A DNA stretch of 64,000 nt from Neophaeotheca triangularis (taxonomy: Eukaryota), in contig BAAIJX010000019.1 of NCBI GenBank assembly GCA_054600435.1, forward strand, positions 62,001-126,000, in the 5' to 3' direction. The notes beneath the pieces are model-generated. The model was not told the DNA's origin. It ran no database searches and was given only the letters and a program-made list of their open reading frames with translations. A program made the translations under genes and the position numbers. Shown one piece after another: positions 26,456 through 37,714 of this stretch; within the stretch, counting starts at the first letter, position 1; each line of letters opens with the position of its first letter.

Positions 26456-29400
26456 ATGGACAAAAATCGGTAGGCCACAAAAGCCGCAGCCTTTTGTATG
26501 CAAGGCAACGGCTACCCACAGCAAAGGAGATCGTCTCGGCAAACGATTTACCTTTGCATGAGCAAGCGTCTAGCTTCAACACTGACGATTTGCTGCTCTT
26601 CCTCCCAACTGACGCCCCCCTACTGTGTCTAGCGACGAGATCGACTAACATCGAGAAAAGGCCAGCTGGAATCTTCTTGAAAGCCCAGGGAATACGCAGG
26701 ATGACGCTTGAGGAAACCCTCCCCCCGGAGGCGGAGCCAGAGTCGAAACCGTTTGACGGCGACGACGATGGGGACGGCGAGTTCGGTCTACCAATCAGCT
26801 CACATGCCGGCATCGAGCAGAGACGTAACCAAAAAGCACTCTTCGACGAATGGCTTATGGACGATGCTGCGCAAGAAGCAGCAAAACCCAGGTCCAAGGA
26901 CGGCACGGTCAAGGAGGCCGCAGATGAAGTCATGTCGATACGCTCTCTCATGTCTAGGCAAACACCTGACAAAATCGTCAAGAACCCACGTGAATATCAG
27001 ATCGAGCTATTTGAGCGCGCCAAGCAACAGAACACGATTGCAGTCCTCGACACTGGATCTGGCAAGACCTTGATAGCTGTCCTCTTGCTTCGCCATACGA
27101 TTGACCAAGAACTCGAGAACCGTGCTGCTGGCATGCCTCCTCGGATATCATTTTTCCTCGTCGATTCAGTCACGCTGGTGTTTCAGCAATTTTCTGTTCT
27201 TGAACACAATCTCGATCACAAAGTGGCCCGGTTTTGTGGCGCAATGGGAGCTGATCTCTGGCATCCTCAAATCTGGAAGCAACACTTCTCCGAAAACAAA
27301 GTCATCGTGTGCACGGCGGATGTGCTGCTACAATGTCTGATGCACAGCTTCATCAGAATCCGGCAGATCAATCTGCTCATCTTCGATGAGGCTCATCACG
27401 CGAAAAAGAACCACTCCTACGCGAGAGTCATCAAAGACTACTATTTGGACGAGCCCGAGAAATCTCTGCGGCCGAGAGTCTTCGGCATGACAGCCAGTCC
27501 AGTCGATGCGAAGACAGATGCGGTGCAGGCGGCACACGAACTGGAGACGTTGCTTCATTCGCGGATTGCCACAACCACTGGTTTAAGTTTCCAAGAAGCG
27601 GTCAAGAGACCGAGCGAGGCAGTCTTGCGCTACGCACCATTGAAAGCACCCTTTGAAACGTCCTTCCTCCGGGACGTCAAGACACGTTGGCCAAACGTCA
27701 TCATATACAAAGATCTCTACGAGCGTTGCGAGTCCATCGCGTCTCATCTCGGCCGCTGGTGTGCTGATCAGTATCTTCTCCGCGCGCTGTCTGAACAGAA
27801 GCTTAGGAAGTTCGTGTCCAGAACGGAGAGGGCCTTCAACTCGCGCAAGATTGCTCGGCCCATCGGAGAGTTGGATGATGCGGTGGCAGAGCTGCAAGAA
27901 GCGTCAAAGTACGTCGAGCAGCAGAGTCAAGAGCGGAGCTTTCAAATGGAGGAGAGTGATTTGAGCTCAAAGGTACAAGAGCTTCGCACTTGGCTGAAAT
28001 GGCAATTTGAACGCCCATCAAACCACAGATGCATCATCTTCGTGGAGAGGAGGCATACTGCCCATCTCCTGAATAAGCTGTTCAACAAGATTGGCACGCA
28101 GCACATGCGATGCGATGCTCTCATCGGTGCCAATCAAGCGGACCTCGACTCGGACAACTTCAGCTTTCGGCAGCAAGTCATGACTTTGATCAAGTTCCGC
28201 AAAGGAGAGACCAACGTTCTTTTCTCGACGTCTGTGGCTGAAGAAGGTCTTGACGTTCCCGACTGCAATCTTGTCGTCCGGTTCGACATGTACAGGACCA
28301 TGATTCAATATGTACAGTCGCGGGGTCGAGCTCGGCACCAGAACAGCAAATTCATCCACATGATTGAGAACGGCAACCCGGTTCATACCGCGCTGTTGCA
28401 CGATGTCCGATTCCAGGAGGCTACCATGCGGCGCTTTTGTCAAGCCTTGCCGGATGACCGCAGGCTTATCGGTAACGAGGACAGTCTCGACGAGCTACTG
28501 ACGAAGGAGAAGAACATGCGGGTCTATATCGAGAAAAGTACAGGCGCCAAGCTTACATACGGTAACTCTCTGGCTTACCTAGCAAACTTTGTCAGCGCGA
28601 TCCCTACGCCTAGTGAAGAAGAGCCAATGCATCCTACCTACGTCGTTTCGTATCAAGGAGCCAAGTATATCGCGGAGGTTATCTTGCCATCTAGCGCGCC
28701 CATCAGATCTGCGATTGGTCGAGTCTGTCAGAAAAAAGCGTTGGCCAAGCGATCCGCAGCTTTCGAGGCCTGCATCGAGTTGCGAAAGGCACAGTATCTC
28801 GACGAGAACCTGATGCCCACTTATCAGAAACGGCTGCCCGCGCTTCGAAACGCTATGCTTGCTGTTGATGACAAGAAGAATACCCAGTATACAATGCGGA
28901 CGAAGCCGAAAATTTGGGCAGAGGGTAGAGCGGGCGAGCAGTCTTTACCGACAAGACTATTCGTCACGGTCATCGATTTCCCAGAGGGTCTCGAGAGGAA
29001 GCACCAGCCGCTCGCACTTCTGACAAGGGACAGGATGCCGGACTATCCTACCTTCTCCCTCTTGCTGAATGATGGTCGTGCCACCGCCGTCTCGACTACA
29101 ACTTTCGAAAAGCCGATTCAGGTCACTGAGGTGCTTCTGAAACAAGTCACCGAGTTCACCTACAGGGTCTATCAGGACGTTTTCAGCAAAAAATACGCGA
29201 AAGAGCCGACCCACGTATCATACTGGATCGCCCCGGCCGTCGCGGCGACAGACGGCAAGGCAAGTGCTCCACACGAAGTGCTCGATCACACCCTAATGGA
29301 GGAGGTCTTGCGGCTGGAAGAATACAAGTGGACCGCCGAAACACCGGAGGAAGACCTAATCAACAAATTCCTGGTTGACAAGTGGGATGGGGCGCGAAAA

Positions 29401-31302
29401 TTCTACAGCACAGGCATAGATCCTAAGCTGACCCAACGGAGCCCCATTCCGGAAGGCGTCGCGAAATCCAAATGGAGCGGTACCATCCTTGACTACAGCG
29501 TCAGCCTGTTCAAGGAGTCGAGAAAGAAAGCGACCTGGGCCGACAACCAGCCGGTGATGATTGCGGAGAAAGTCTTGTTTCGCCGCAACATGCTTGCTCC
29601 ACCGGAAGCAAAGGAAGTAAACCAGCGGACCAAGGCATACCTATGTCCTGACCCGCTGCTCATCTCTGTTCTGCCGCCTGCAGTTGCGGTGAGCTGCTTT
29701 ACCTTCCCGGCCATCATCTACAGACTCGAATCGTACATGATTGCGCAAGAAGCATGCAGCCTCGTTGGCGTCCATTGTATGACCGATGTTGCGCTCGAGG
29801 CGGTCACTCAGGACTCCCAAAACAGCGGAGATCACGGCACCATCGAGCGCATCAACTTTCAACATGGTATGGGCAAGAACTATGAGCGGCTCGAGTTTAT
29901 GGGCGACTGCTTCCTGAAGACGGCCACAACAATCGCCGTTTTCGTGCAAAACCCGGAAGATGACGAGTTTGCATACCATTGTTCCCGCATGGCTATGTTG
30001 TGCAATAAGAACCTCTTCGAGAACGCTTTGGAGATCAAGCTGTACGAATACATCCGGACGATGGCCTTCTCTCGACGCCTGTGGTACCCTGAGGGCCTGA
30101 TGCTGCTCGAGGGCAAAGGCGTCAAACTGAAGGAGGAGCCCAAACTCACTAGCAGTGAGGTAGTGAAGCATCCTCTAGGTCAGAAGACCATTGCCGATGT
30201 GTGCGAGGCCTTGATTGGGGCCGCGTACATTGCGCACAACAACCAAGAAAAGTGGACGCCAGAAACAATGAACGAAGCCGTGCGCGTTGTTACCAAGCTC
30301 GTCAATAACCCCGACCATACTTTCCAGAAGTGGTCCGATTACCGTGCGGCCTACACACTACCAACTTACCAGACTGGCGACGTCTCCGCCTCGCAGCGCG
30401 ATATGGCCGAGAAAGTGGAACTTGAGCATGGCTACAAGTTCAACTACCCCCGCCTCCTGCGCTCCGCCTTTGTGCACCCCTCGCAACCTTTCATTTGGGA
30501 AAAGGTCCCCTCATACCAGCGTCTGGAATTCCTCGGAGATGCTCTGCTCGACATGGCTAGCATCTCCTACCTATTCTACCGCTTTCCGGATAAGGACCCA
30601 CAATGGCTCACAGAGCACAAAATGGCCATGGTCTCGAACAAGTTCCTCGGCTGCGTCTGCGTGACCCTCGGCTTCCACCGTCACCTCCGCTATTCCTCGT
30701 CAATCCTCGAGCACCAAATCCGCGAATATGCCTCCGAACTGCTAGAAGCTAAACGCACAGCGGGCGAAGACGCTCGGGATTACTGGACCACGGTGTCAGA
30801 CCCTCCGAAATGCCTCCCCGACATCGTCGAAGCCTACGCGGGCGCCATCTTCATCGACTCGGACTTTGACTACGGCGTCGTCCAGGACTTCTTCAACCAG
30901 CACATCGTCTACTTCTTCGAGGACATGAGTCTATACGATGCCTTCGCCAACAACCACCCTTGCACACATTTGCACAATTTGCTGCAAACCACCTACGCGT
31001 GCCAGCAGTACCGGCTTTTGGCGAAGGAAATCCCTGCAGACGACCCGGTCAATGGGAAGAGCCTGGTTGTCGCAGCGGTCATGGTCCATAAGACTATCGT
31101 GGCCAGTTCGCGAGGGAAAAGTGGAAGGTATGCGAGACTCAGGGCCGCGCAGCAGGCGAATGAGATGATTGAGGGCTTGGCGCCTTTTGAGTTTCGTGCG
31201 AAGTTTGGATGTGATTGCTCGGGCGAGGGGGCGGTGGATGGGGAGGTGGAGAAAGCGGCCAAGGGACTGGCTGAGGGTATGAGTGTTCTCGGATTGGGGT
31301 AA
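26456..31302 (+). CDS. DCL1: Dicer-like protein 1 (DExH helicase, dimerisation domain, PAZ-like region, two RNase III domains, dsRBD); proposed exons 26456-26469 and 26661-31302, alternative start ATG 26701
   Basis: PREYQ, LDTGSGKT, LIFDEAHH, TSVAEEGLDVPDCN, QSRGRAR; RNase III signatures ERLEFMGDCFL and QRLEFLGDALL. Confidence 0.93.
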
Positions 31303-31889
31303 GCGTTGCTTGAGCATGATGGCAGAATGGCTGTTTGCTCGCGACATGAAGGAAATGATGGGCGAGATTACGATTGACGAACCAACGAAGAAAAGCTGCT
31401 GTCTCGCGATAACGGTAGCTGTCAAAATGCGTTCTGCTTAGCTCGGGAGATAGACGACAAAACTTTGAACACCGCCCTTTCCCTAGCACGCAAGTAATCA
31501 CCTATCATCAGGATGGCATGTCCGAGACCTGTCAGGCGTCAAGGCGCTTGAAGAGGCACCACGCCGCCATGCGTTAGGCTATTCCCGTACAAAAATCTTT
31601 CTTGTTACCTCGGCATTGAACTGCCTCGTTACCTAGATACCAACGTTGCTCGTGTATATAACGTTTTGCAGAGGGGTACTATACTTTTCTCGCAAGAAGC
31701 CAATGAAACGTGAGAATCCACTGGATGTTCAAATCAAAGGGTTTCGAGAAGTGAGGTTGGTTGAAGTCGGCTCCCGGGCGGTCGTTTCGGCAATCAGCTA
31801 GTTAATGTCCACGTGATGTCGTGGCTGTGACGCGTGTCTTACTAAGCGCGTCACCTGCCTCAGGTCTCTACATTACCTCCTTACCTACT

Positions 31890-34376
31890 AGTAAACCTCC
31901 ACCATCCTCTCATCTTAGCATAACATCAACATCCCCGAGTAGCTTAGCTATTCAAGCGCCTTTTATCACGCTTCTACTCTTTACCATACCAGCAGACATC
32001 TACACCTACACACTCACTAAACCACCACCAAACGTCGCGTAACTGGAACCACCACGAAACCAACAAGCCCACAACCCACGCGTCCTTTCAACATCCACCA
32101 CAAGCATATACCCTCCCCACAGTCACGAGACCGCCATCATTCGACTAGCCTCGCGCCGGTTGGATTCAGACCACCTGGTCTCGCTCCCGCGTGCAGCAAC
32201 AGTCGCCAACCTACTGCGTCAGCGCCGAGCGACGATTCTCACCAGCCTACGCATACGGGAAACGCGCTGTCGCACAACAAATGCACGCCGGGGGGATGGC
32301 ACTCGGAACTTAACCCTAAGAAGTTTCCTCGGTCTCCTTTTGCTACAAAACAGCAAAAGACGAAAGCCTCGCGGTGCTCTACTTTTCCCAATGAGAGCAA
32401 GCCACCGGCTCCGTGATGAGCTTCCCCAATTCTGACGTGTGGACGCTGGAGCTTGAAAAGGCCCTGGTGAATGCTCTGATGTAGGAGGGGAAGGGAAAGC
32501 GGGGCTGGTTCTGGTCCGGTGCCTATTCAATGGGCAGTAATACAGCGGCCTCATGCGTCGGTTTGGTAAGACCTCTCAGAGAGGCGCGCGTCGAGTGCCG
32601 CTGGCTGGACTTGTGCTTCTGATCATCGAGGGACAGCTTTAGCGGTAGTGGTGTTGGACGTGAGACGGGAGAGAGGGGGTGAGGGGTGTCGGGCAGACCT
32701 AGTTCGGGTCTTGCTCTTAGGGTCTTCAACAAGCTGGTCGGCGGGCGGGGAAGGTGAGGTTGATGCTTTGGAGGTTGCCATGCTGGGTCTCGCGCGTGTT
32801 GGAGCTGAGTATGCGTCGACTTCTGCATCAGCACCTTAAGTGGTGTCTGTTGAGTACCGGCGACCTTGACTTGGTTGCTGGATTGAGAAAACTACAGGCA
32901 GAGCACGACATTATCAGCAATGATCTTGGCCTACAAACAGGCTGCGCGGGTCGGGTTGCTTCATCTCTGGCCTTGAATGCCACACCTGCCAGCACGATGC
33001 ACAGCATCTAGCGGGGTGGTCAAGTCTACCCACAGAAGCAACCCATTCGTGCGGTCGAACAGGCATGTCGTACGCTCCAGCCACCTGTCGTCTCTCTTGT
33101 CCGACGGCTTTGTCACTGGCTACCGGTGCTCGCAGGTGTAGCAAGTCGCCGTAGATCCTCTCATCCCAACCATGGCGCGCGAACCCAGAGCGAACAACAG
33201 CTTCCTCAGCGTCGCCTACCCGACAAACCCGACCTTGTCCCCAGCGAAGACGTCCTGTACACCTCTTTAACCCGCGTATCGGCAGCACGTACGCCAACCA
33301 CTCTCCAACCCATCCACCACTCCAACGGCCCACCATGAAGCCCGCGCTACAGCACCAGCTACCAGCGCGGTTGCAGTCCGCTGCATTGTCCGATCAGCCG
33401 CGTCAATCATCTCCTCATGCTGCAGAGAATGGGTCGATCCGATGAGCGCCGAAATATCCAACAACGCCCAGCCGCCGTCGACTCTTCGTTGACTCAGCAG
33501 CATGGACCCCACGAGCAATTCAGTGGGAAGCAAGCGGTTTTTGCAGATGTGCTTTGTCCGTTTGAAACTGCCTCTCGGAGTTCACATCTCGCTCGCGGCG
33601 CCTTCCGGGCGTCGTGGCTTGGGGTAAGAACGAAGAGATGGAATCAAAGACTGTCTCTGAGGTGGAGTGCTTTCTGCACAAGGAGAGGCGATCTTCCTGC
33701 TCAGCAGGGCTTGGGATGTGGGAGCTTTTGTTGGTGGAGTGGTGCGTACCAAGGAAACGACTGGGTGGTTTAAGTGGTGCTGCGTTAGGTTGTAGGTGGA
33801 AGACGCTAGGTTGCTAAGATTGAGTGCTGGATGAGAGGCGGGATGGAGATGCTGTGTTTACTGTGGCTCTTCGGAAACTCGAGATTGGGCTTGTTGCCTT
33901 TCTAGCGTGTTGAAGTGGTGCTTGAGGGTCTACGGAAGGCATGTTATCGGATTTGACGGGACGTCTTGAGTGGCTTGGACGAGTGGACTCTCAATTCGGC
34001 TGCTTTGGCGGCCGCAGGCCGACGGGCAGTGCCTCGGGGACTCTGGGTAAACAGCTGCAAAGCGCGGGACCTCTCTCGCGTGAGGATCAAAGCTTTGGCT
34101 TGTCTGCGCTGCGCATTTGCCAGTTGATCTGGAGTACTGCTCAGACGCCTGCGGATCCAAGCCAACCTATGAAGAGAACGTGTCCTACTCGCAAGGACGA
34201 GGCGCATCTGCTCTGAATCTGGTGCTGGAAGTGGGCCCAAAAGCTACACAGACGCCGCCGGTGAATTGCAAGCTTGATCGAAAGGGGAAGAGGGATCGCA
34301 TTGAGCGCCAGGGCGCTTTCGCCGCCTTCTCGAATCCTGCAAAGGGGCCGGGTTGGCGGCTATTTTACTTTTTTCT
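31890..34376 (+). ncRNA. TER: Putative telomerase RNA (TER), ~2.5 kb; 5' end approximate
   Basis: No credible ORF; template TAACCCTAA at 32311-32319; nested long-range helices; terminal GCCGCC/GGCGGC stem; U-rich tract, then ATAAGT (34377), GCTAAC (34416) and CAG (34430-34432), matching the 3'-end architecture known for Pezizomycotina telomerase RNAs. Confidence 0.88.
32311..32319 (+). other. Telomerase template UAACCCUAA (specifies TTAGGG)
   Basis: 1.5 copies of the complement of TTAGGG inside the structured non-coding locus. Confidence 0.85.
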
Positions 34377-34432
34377 ATAAGTCTCCCACTCCTCCCAAAA
34401 TGTGGGAAAGCCTCTGCTAACTACCACCGCAG
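34377..34432 (+). other. Terminal non-canonical intron (AUAAGU 5' splice site) defining the TER 3' end
   Basis: ATAAGT...GCTAAC...CAG, 56 nt, similar in size to the short introns of this window. Confidence 0.85.
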
Positions 34433-35503: not shown

Positions 35504-35821
35504 TTACTAGCCTTCTATACCGCTTCGAGCAAGGTTACGCCCCCCTCTCTCACCCTACAATAATATTAATATCTGCAGGCCGGCAATCATTAGACGTGCA
35601 GCCAGTACTAATAGCTTACCTTATGTACCTCCCTCACCTAGGCTGCCTCATCAGTCATCATCCCCAAGCTCCCGTAGGTCTTTGCACTTTCTCTTCCTCC
35701 GAGGTCCACGTCTAGCCTTGTCGGAGAGTTCCACTTTGTGCTACCTCGCGGCCTCGTCCTACTTCGAGAGCAACCTCATCACCGGAGCCCGACGACAACC
35801 TTCTCATCCACCTCCGCCAAC

Positions 35822-37714
35822 ATGCTCGCCCTTTTCGTAGCCCTCCTCGCTTCCGTTCTGTTGACCCCCGAGGCTTCTGCGCAAGACGCTGACGAGACCA
35901 TTTGGGCCTCTGTCATCTTTTCACGTACGGGCGAGCGCACGCCATTGACCTTGGGGACCGTCACGACCCAGCTCACATCGCTGGGAGCGCAGCAGCAATA
36001 CCAGACGGGCGATTTCTTTCGCCAACGCTACTTTAGAAGAAGCAGCGACGAGGGTGGTGAAGGCAATGCCTCCGCAGTCGCTCCTTTCTACGGCTTGAAC
36101 GAGGATAAATACGATCCCCTACAATCTTATATCCTGGCGGTCGACAAGACCTATACTGTCAGCAGCGCTCAGGCGTTTATGCAGGCCTTTTATCCACCCC
36201 ATACGCTCGATGAATCACTGGCGGCTGCGCTTGATCCAACAAGTGTGCTGGCTAACGGGACATATATTCCAAATCCTTTGGATGGATACCAATACCCTCA
36301 CATCCAAGCGGTAGATAGTCTGTCTCCAGAATATGTTTACTTGGAGGGCTGGCTTCACTGCACCAATTGGTACTCGGCAGCGTCCCAGTACCTCCGGACC
36401 AATGACTTCTCGCGCATAGAGAATAGCAGCAAATACCTATACGACGCCGTCGGTCCCCCACTCCTCGAACATGTTCTCTCCGAAAACAGCACCTGGAGCT
36501 ACGGCAACGCGTACCAAATCTACGACTACCTCAACTACCAAAACATGCACAACGACACAGTCGAATCCATGTTCGAGTCCAACGACTTCGACACCGACGA
36601 CGAACCAGGCGTCCTGTCCCAACTCCGCTGGCTCGCAGACCTGCACCAAGACAACCTGTTTGCCAAAAACAACGACTCCCTGGTCAACGCCAACGCCGCC
36701 GTCCGCTCCATGTCCACAATAGCAGGAAACACTCTCGCGGCCAAAATGCTCAACCAACTCCAACTCTCCATCAGCTCGCGCGGAACCCAATACAAACTCT
36801 CCCTCCTAACCGGCGAGCACGAACCCCTAATCTCCCTCTTCGCGCTCCTCGACCTCCCCCGCTTAAACTCCGACTTCCGCGGCCTGCCCTCCTTCGCCTC
36901 CGCCGCCGTCTTTGAACTCTACTCCCCAGGCGCTCCCCCCAACAACGCCTCCTCTTCCCCCGCCGACCTCTTCCCAGAGCAAGACGACTTGTGGGTCCGT
37001 TTCCTTTTCCGCAACGGCTCGCAAGGCTCTTTACAAGCTTTCCCCATTTTCGGGCGGGGGCCGAGCCAGACGGAAATGCGATGGTCGGATTTCGAAAAAG
37101 AAATGGCGGCCATTATGCTCGATGAGGTGGGCGAGTGGTGCAGGCTTTGCGGCGGGAGCGAGAGGCAGGTTTTCTGCCCCGGGCTCGATTCCAGCGGGGG
37201 GAGTAGTCGGTTTGGCGGCGGGAGCGGGCGGTTCGGCAGTGGGGATGGGGATGGGAATGGTAGTGGCGGTGGAGGAGGTCTGAGCCCGGCTGTCGGAGGT
37301 GTCGTGGGCGCGATTGTGGCTTTGCTCATTGCCGGCTTGGTCTTCGCGGGCTTGTGGCTGATTGGCGGCTTTAGATTTCGGAGGACGGAGGAGGCACGGG
37401 GGAGACGGGAGCCTGGTGGCGGCGGGTCTACTATCGCTGGTGGTGGTTTCAAAGGCAGTGCCAAGTTGGCTTCGGACCCGGATTTGGTGCGTGCGGGCAA
37501 GGGCGGCGCGGGCGCCAGTGTCGTCCGCGGTGCCGCCAATGGAGAGGTTTCGGAGCACGAGAGGATTAATAGCTGGGAGTTGAAGAAGGATGTTGCTGGT
37601 GTGGAGAGGCCTGGGCAGGCTGCGGCGCGCAGGCCGAGCTGGGACGAGGAGGATGATGGTGATGATCGCATTGATCCTTTTAGGGATCCGACTAGGCCTG
37701 ATGAGAGGGTTTGA
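35822..37714 (+). CDS. Histidine-phosphatase (clade 2, acid-phosphatase-like) type I membrane protein, probably lacking the catalytic His
   Basis: Signal peptide; RTGERTP where RHGxRxP is expected; LTSLGAQQ; Cys pair near the domain end; TM helix VGGVVGAIVALLIAGLVFAGLWLIG; cytoplasmic tail with GGFKGSAKLASDPD. Confidence 0.8.
   Translation: MLALFVALLASVLLTPEASAQDADETIWASVIFSRTGERTPLTLGTVTTQLTSLGAQQQYQTGDFFRQRYFRRSSDEGGEGNASAVAPFYGLNEDKYDPLQSYILAVDKTYTVSSAQAFMQAFYPPHTLDESLAAALDPTSVLANGTYIPNPLDGYQYPHIQAVDSLSPEYVYLEGWLHCTNWYSAASQYLRTNDFSRIENSSKYLYDAVGPPLLEHVLSENSTWSYGNAYQIYDYLNYQNMHNDTVESMFESNDFDTDDEPGVLSQLRWLADLHQDNLFAKNNDSLVNANAAVRSMSTIAGNTLAAKMLNQLQLSISSRGTQYKLSLLTGEHEPLISLFALLDLPRLNSDFRGLPSFASAAVFELYSPGAPPNNASSSPADLFPEQDDLWVRFLFRNGSQGSLQAFPIFGRGPSQTEMRWSDFEKEMAAIMLDEVGEWCRLCGGSERQVFCPGLDSSGGSSRFGGGSGRFGSGDGDGNGSGGGGGLSPAVGGVVGAIVALLIAGLVFAGLWLIGGFRFRRTEEARGRREPGGGGSTIAGGGFKGSAKLASDPDLVRAGKGGAGASVVRGAANGEVSEHERINSWELKKDVAGVERPGQAAARRPSWDEEDDGDDRIDPFRDPTRPDERV

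Follow-up and report, generated by a model that had tools for sequence, protein, structure and literature searches.

We propose that a telomerase RNA locus in the filamentous ascomycete Neophaeotheca triangularis encodes a long helix that encloses the catalytic core of the RNA from outside. The region from ~31850 to 34376 on the plus strand of a 64,000-nt stretch of contig BAAIJX010000019.1 (the whole stretch is referred to here as the window) is what we identify as a Pezizomycotina-type telomerase RNA locus. Two arms of this RNA, one C/A-rich and upstream of the template, the other G/U-rich and downstream of the pseudoknot (Table 1), probably form a long, imperfect helix that is equivalent to the terminal arm of yeast telomerase RNAs. 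The arms are complementary beyond what their composition explains, they lie just outside the equivalent of the conserved core-enclosing helix 1 (CEH1), and in two related clades the pairing at the same position is maintained by compensatory changes. From these observations we infer that the two arms of the window are also paired in the living cell.

An earlier reading of the letters of the window (the sequence-only reading) had picked out five pairs of segments, spread over ~1.9 kb around the template domain, as an extended P1-like stem. All five are present at the positions listed in Table 1, are complementary, and follow one another in strict antiparallel order, with duplex energies of -17.4, -9.2, -10.7, -14.7 and -18.1 kcal/mol for segments 1 to 5. 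The minimum free energy (MFE) fold of 31850-34378 joins the two arms, over the full extents given in Table 1, in a continuous helix of 120 pairs, made imperfect by bulges and a single large internal loop; the partition function gives a probability (P) above 0.9 to 79 inter-arm pairs. The comparison with dinucleotide-shuffled controls, which had been put forward as a check of the stem, came out in its favour. The cofold of 31895-32080 with 33710-33850 has an energy of -134.5 kcal/mol, as against -95.3 +/- 5.9 kcal/mol for 300 dinucleotide shuffles of both arms, none of which is as stable as the native pair (0/300; lowest, -118.4 kcal/mol; z -6.7). Similarly, the longest collinear chain that can be built from exact complementary words of at least 8 nt comes to 34 nt, as against 10.7 +/- 6.7 nt in shuffles, 1/500 of which reach 34. 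When both arms were shuffled in place within the RNA, 0/12 MFE folds reached 120 pairs, and the native fold was more stable by 19-36 kcal/mol.

Relatives of the locus were found on metagenome contigs with a degenerate P6/P6.1 pattern, which gave 107 stretches; 49 of these have the template UAACCCUAA upstream of the P6/P6.1 motif and continue for 300 nt or more on the 5' side of that template. We picked 15 relatives from the clusters nearest to the window and folded 13 of them, leaving out L012 and L053. Every one of the 13 forms a helix of 83-172 pairs, in which sequence 73-492 nt upstream of the template pairs with sequence 62-606 nt upstream of the P6 motif. The helix is thus placed as in the window, with a strand upstream of the template paired to the region after the pseudoknot. 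In part, the helix in these relatives reflects complementary composition, itself kept, because in-place shuffles also pair.

Since the window's own arms cannot be aligned to those of any relative, we counted covariation clade by clade in the helix that occupies the corresponding position, using clades C1 and C2 after dropping near-identical duplicates and leaving out C3 and C4. An eight-sequence alignment that includes the window (A2) was not used for such a count, because its consensus fold puts the window's arms in unreliable registers. In C2, the nearest alignable clade (five sequences, alignment A1), the RNAalifold consensus holds 107 long-range pairs, and 26 of these are changed on both sides; shuffling the 3' letters gives 13.4 +/- 2.5 (0/500 shuffles reach the native count), and sliding the partner by 1-3 columns gives 5-11. 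Likewise, 86% of the cells of this alignment are paired, as against 36-44% when slid. In C1 (eight sequences, alignment A3), 36 of 116 pairs are changed on both sides, as against 19.3 +/- 2.7 in shuffles (0/500) and 7-18 when slid. Because RNAalifold rewards covariation, we repeated both counts with the MFE structure of a single member. With the structure of L026, A3 gave 38 pairs changed on both sides, compared with 24.7 in shuffles (0/500) and 14-24 when slid; with the structure of L001, A1 gave 30, compared with 14.1 in shuffles (0/500) and 8-13 when slid. The pair-count measure gave 0-1% false positives in the tool's own trials. The two innermost helices recovered in C1 are exactly CEH1 and CEH2 of the Rfam family for these RNAs (RF02462, Telomerase_Asco), which anchors the outward extension: the other nine recovered helices continue from there into regions that are unannotated in the family.

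Several results weigh against a helix that forms in the cell. Composition accounts for much of the inter-arm pairing, because arms shuffled in place are still joined by 52-105 MFE pairs (mean ~70). The reverse complements of the arms pair as well as the arms themselves (interaction energy, -86.2 vs -88.7 kcal/mol), and G-U-type mismatches are not enriched over A-C-type mismatches, either in the window (4 vs 3) or in the 13 relatives (99 vs 108); by itself, the window gives no sign of selection on the RNA, and we judge these two tests to be uninformative. In a fixed-window test of complementarity the window has a z of only 2.8 (1/200), and 33 sequences divide into 21 at z >=2 and 12 below, with four sequences of clade C3 at z -1.7 to -3.8; this test is crude, and its windows probably miss the arms in some clades. 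A blastn search of the locus against the 107 loci found no similarity in either arm, and matched conserved islands only (the template, 32503-32640, 33303-33455, the pseudoknot, 33627-33692 and the three-way junction); MAFFT identity across the arms, which are not alignable to any relative, is 45-54%. The covariation sets are small, and their shuffle control ignores phylogeny. Three of the five registers of the sequence-only reading are disfavoured in the ensemble, where neighbouring registers are preferred. Lastly, the sole RNA data, the metatranscriptome contigs described below, do not cover the 5' arm, and are uninformative for the parts that they leave uncovered.

The pairing could, on this evidence, be a by-product of setting a C/A-rich strand against a G/U-rich one, as would be the case if the arms were, for example, single-stranded tracts bound by proteins, with the helix absent from the cell. 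The 52-105 pairs formed by arms shuffled in place fit this explanation, as do an average of 1.9 exact complementary 8-mers between shuffled arms, the lack of asymmetry between the strands or between G-U and A-C mismatches, and the weak score of the window in the fixed-window test. Nonetheless, we consider it unlikely. The native arms beat 300/300 shuffles by at least 16 kcal/mol, and 12/12 in-place shuffles, and the compensatory changes in the two clades exceed those in both the shuffled and the slid controls.

The exact registers of the window's helix are predictions. Those favoured by the ensemble are TCTCATC/GATGAGA, within segment 1, and segments 4 and 5 (P 0.86-0.998), with P ~0 for CCATCC/GGATGG, TCTTAGCA/TGCTAAGA and CACCTACA/TGTAGGTG. 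Segments 1 and 2 are both present, as had been proposed, but they share 31913-31914, and so cannot both form in full at the same time. The bulge drawn in segment 1 by the sequence-only reading comes to 4 nt (GGCG) if CCATCC/GGATGG and TCTCATC/GATGAGA both form. We weighed the alternative that the arms pair together, or with nearby sequence, in an arrangement materially unlike the five segments. In addition to the three registers with P ~0, an 11-bp perfect match of 32061-32071 with 33886-33896 competes with segment 5, and a tandem CAYCUACA motif at 31997-32010 permits two registers of segment 3. We regard such an arrangement as very unlikely, given that the full-length ensemble assigns a P of ~0 to the 11-bp alternative and of 0.97-0.98 to segment 5, and that the shifted registers stay in the same helix, so that the overall reading is unchanged.

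A DNA-level inverted repeat lying in the gene by chance, whether a relic of an inverted duplication or the terminus of a mobile element, with no role in the RNA, would fit with pairing that is almost all Watson-Crick and equal on both strands, and with arms that as DNA are 82% identical over 145 aligned columns (65 gap columns), but it is the most improbable of the explanations considered, since a helix at the same position is found in 13/13 folded relatives whose arms have no detectable similarity to those of the window, compensatory changes maintain the pairing within clades, and the perfect stretches are of 9 nt or less, too short for gene conversion to be a likely cause.

The long helix can be placed relative to the conserved elements of the family. 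In the RF02462 consensus, seen on a full-length member, model positions 1 to ~210 are unpaired; CEH1 (gcGCAC/GUGCgc) comes first, followed by CEH2 (GCC/GGC) and then by the template boundary helix (AGU..CCGA/UCGG.ACU), which abuts the template, and the stretch from the 3' strand of CEH1 to P6 has no pairs. Qi et al. (PMC3592445) state that sequence variability kept them from including regions outside the two core domains. The window has no clear equivalent of CEH2, but it has a recognisable one of CEH1 (AAGCAU/GUGCUU; Table 1), paired without mismatch in 6/8 aligned sequences, the window included, and with an ensemble P of ~0.001 in the nearest-neighbour model. The arm helix begins outside this element by 20 nt on the 5' side and 36 nt on the 3' side; relative to the template, the 5' strand of the arm is 230-426 nt upstream, and the 3' strand begins 54 nt past the end of the pseudoknot match (33655). 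The helix described by the sequence-only reading is an outward extension of CEH1. Its description as a P1-like stem holds insofar as the helix encloses the template-pseudoknot domain and shows compensatory changes at the same position in two clades. The helix is not the conserved core-enclosing helix itself, and it has no template boundary role of the kind that vertebrate P1 has, because a local boundary helix abuts the template.

P6 and P6.1 (34038-34101) follow the 3' strand of the arm, which ends at 33866, and so place the three-way junction on the distal 3' side of the helix; in the MFE fold the CR4/5-like three-way-junction (P5/P6/P6.1) arm occupies ~33883-34279. Beyond it, an outer helix (Table 1) is a prediction only, with six pairs from 31863/34297 at P 0.96.

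We propose that the arm helix stacks directly outside the short, conserved CEH1, where it would close a loop of ~1.6 kb in which lie the boundary-element arm, the template, a long central arm and the pseudoknot. The arm would lead outward to a junction, and from this junction would emerge both the three-way-junction arm and the 5'/3' terminal region with its Sm-like site, the predicted outer helix leading from the junction to that site. By analogy with yeast, the arm may serve as a structural spacer, holding the catalytic core shut and keeping P6/P6.1 and the protein site at the 3' end tethered to it. Selection would then act on the pairing and not on the sequence, and the arm would be fast-evolving.

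Known systems resemble this arrangement to different degrees. In Schizosaccharomyces pombe TER1, two mostly helical arms of ~400 nt leave the core. One of these, the terminal arm, starts with the core-enclosing helix (P3), continues by way of P2 to P1 and bears the three-way junction; a helix just distal to the core is required in vivo (PMC13058752). TLC1 of Saccharomyces cerevisiae is described as a flexible scaffold (PMC7685517). The arm in the window is like the yeast terminal arm (TER1 P1-P3, TLC1) in being mostly helical, hundreds of nucleotides in length and formed by long-range 5'/3' pairing, in emanating from a core-enclosing helix with the three-way junction on the 3' side, and in combining fast sequence evolution with phylogenetically supported pairing, in the case of the window by way of two related clades. 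By this analogy, we read the window helix as the probable core-proximal part of a yeast-type terminal arm. Unlike the yeast arms, it belongs to another lineage, with a vertebrate-like telomerase (TTAGGG template, P6/P6.1), and is known here from sequence; moreover, its part from CEH1 to the junction alone measures ~200 and 160 nt on the two strands.

The core-enclosing helices (CEHs) of Pezizomycotina (PMC3592445, RF02462) are closer in lineage to the window. In these, too, the template-pseudoknot domain is closed by pairing between sequence 5' of the boundary-element arm and a strand that comes just downstream of the pseudoknot, and the window has a CEH1 of its own, from which the arm helix continues outward. 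The difference is one of extent: the Rfam consensus has 6 pairs in CEH1 and 3 in CEH2, whereas the arm in the window has ~120 pairs in regions that Rfam leaves unpaired. Vertebrate P1 is likewise a long-range helix around the template-pseudoknot domain (PMC4993307), but P1 sets the template boundary via a short linker, whereas the window helix ends 230 nt upstream of the template, which the local boundary helix abuts.

The arm is, then, an extension of a known element that is unannotated in current family models. A full-text literature search found no terminal arm or extended helix beyond CEH1 described for filamentous-fungal telomerase RNA; this search covered the text of the primary papers, whose figures and supplements may show more structure. 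The proposal that a terminal arm is general in the telomerase RNAs of filamentous ascomycetes is, in our view, evenly balanced: such an arm would be a helix of at least 100 pairs outside CEH1, with pairing and strand composition kept in spite of the lack of sequence similarity between clades, and in this lineage it would belong to an RNA of at least ~2.5 kb. Published core models of filamentous-fungal telomerase RNA end at the short core-enclosing helices, leaving about half of 2-kb-plus RNAs without assigned structure. If our reading is correct, the arm would set the distance from the catalytic core to CR4/5 in an otherwise vertebrate-like telomerase, and an RNA of ~2.5 kb or longer in this lineage, undetected by Rfam, would be among the largest known. 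An arm beyond CEH1 that is supported by covariation would tie the vertebrate-like RNAs of Pezizomycotina to the flexible-scaffold architecture of yeast, and would provide a defined element to shorten, lengthen or swap in work on minimal RNAs. The current Rfam model misses an entire lineage of these RNAs, a point of relevance to the annotation of fungal genomes.

The identity of the locus as a telomerase RNA follows from its equivalents of the template, the boundary helix and CEH1, from collinear sub-threshold matches to RF02462, from a U-run followed by AUAAGU, and from the lack of Pfam matches in its open reading frames; the criteria for the Pezizomycotina type are those of Qi et al. 2013 (PMC3592445), which also states the template of N. 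crassa. The template UAACCCUAA is unchanged, together with its flanks, in 8/8 aligned sequences, and the putative function of the RNA is to bind TERT and template telomere synthesis. The boundary helix consists of seven Watson-Crick pairs, formed by 32121-32123 and 32126-32129 with 32302-32305 and 32308-32310, and ends one base before the template. The two matches to RF02462, to the pseudoknot region (in sequence and hairpin only) and to P6/P6.1, are collinear on the plus strand, and both fall below the 30-bit gathering threshold. The P6.1 stem (AAGC/GCUU, 4 bp) has an ensemble P of 0.94. Its loop (UUUG, between AAGC and GCUU in 34090-34101) has 4 nt, where the 5-nt NUNGN consensus is one base longer, and the UUUG loop is common to the seven nearest relatives.

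At the gathering threshold of 30 bits, RF02462 has no match on the window locus, and 7/7 of the nearest relatives (L001, L011, L045, L062, L079, L028 and L003) also miss the gathering score. By contrast, 8/8 loci of clade C1 have full-length matches of 760-1229 bits. The coverage of the model appears to be limited to a part of the filamentous ascomycetes. When the sub-regions 31880-32420 and 33640-34040 were scanned with Rfam, the arms had no telomerase match, and the only rows were of small nucleolar RNAs and long non-coding RNAs at chance level; none of the 10 open reading frames of at least 80 aa in 32160-34380 matched Pfam. Outside the template, the pseudoknot and P6/P6.1, the most conserved stretch of the locus is 32503-32640, which is 78-87% identical to relatives and contains long runs that are invariant across eight sequences, such as CAUGCGUCGG.UUGGUAAGAC and GGCGCGCGUCG.

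Table 1. Positions in the window of the two arms of the proposed long helix and of other features of the telomerase RNA locus.
Feature	Position	Strand	Remarks
5' strand of long core-enclosing arm, C/A-rich	31885-32081	+	contains segments 1 to 5: 31902-31914, 31913-31920, 32003-32010, 32015-32026, 32059-32073
3' strand of long core-enclosing arm, G/U-rich	33709-33866	+	contains the partners of segments 1 to 5: 33830-33846, 33812-33819, 33791-33798, 33764-33776, 33717-33735
CEH1 equivalent, 5' strand AAGCAU	32102-32107	+	aligns with '((((((' gcGCAC of RF02462
CEH1 equivalent, 3' strand GUGCUU	33667-33672	+	aligns with '))))))' GUGCgc of RF02462
Predicted outer helix, 5' strand	31850-31882	+	MFE pairing with 34282-34316; would close the arm junction beyond the three-way-junction arm
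Predicted outer helix, 3' strand	34282-34316	+	MFE
Template boundary helix, 5' strand (AGU..CGAG)	32121-32129	+	matches the RF02462 '<<<---<<<<' / '>>>>->>>' helix
Template boundary helix, 3' strand	32302-32310	+	abuts the template; RF02462 helix match
Template UAACCCUAA	32311-32319	+	would specify TTAGGG repeats
Pseudoknot region including CGGUUUUUG	33534-33655	+	RF02462 local match, 21.1 bits, E 8e-4, model positions 1285-1381
CR4/5-like P6 and P6.1 stem-loops of the three-way junction	34038-34101	+	RF02462 local match, 21.9 bits, E 5e-4, model positions 1627-1690
U-rich Sm-like run, then non-canonical 5' splice site AUAAGU (34377-34382)	34362-34382	+	
Branch site UGCUAAC	34415-34421	+	sequence signal
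AG	34431-34432		sequence signal

The mature 3' end of the RNA is predicted at ~34376. That the spliceosome produces this end, by cutting at a 5' splice site whose first base is A, is read only from the sequence signals in Table 1. The arrangement of a U-run followed by AUAAGU recurs in the relatives L001 and L045 and in clade C1. In Aspergillus telomerase RNA, it is an A at intron position 1 that keeps the spliceosome from going beyond the first step (PMC4299874).

The sequence-only reading had placed the 5' end of the RNA at or before ~31900, and this follows if the long helix is real. In clade C1 the start of the Rfam model precedes the first pair of the arm by ~45 alignment columns, which fits such a position. 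Just upstream of the arm, at 31827-31854, is a perfect 8-bp hairpin (GUGACGCG ... CGCGUCAC, with a 12-nt loop), and a TATATAA box lies ~170 nt upstream of the hairpin, at 31655-31661. Together, the hairpin and the box suggest a 5' end between ~31700 and 31850, and hence an RNA of ~2.5-2.7 kb. At that length, the RNA would exceed the M. graminicola telomerase RNA of 2425 nt, which was called the largest in 2012 (PMC3592445).

One marine metatranscriptome run contains three short, low-depth contigs that are 95-99+% identical to 32327-32474, 32478-32657 and 33484-33737; being contigs, these matches show no ends, strand, level or transcription. Given this identity to the locus, a near relative or another strain was therefore present in the sample. 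The locus lies within ~4 kb that have no long open reading frames, between two protein-coding genes. Upstream, at 26494-31302, a single open reading frame of 1602 aa encodes a Dicer-like protein with helicase, Dicer-dimerisation, two RNase III and dsRNA-binding domains; downstream, at 35738-37714, is a gene for a branch-2 histidine phosphatase.

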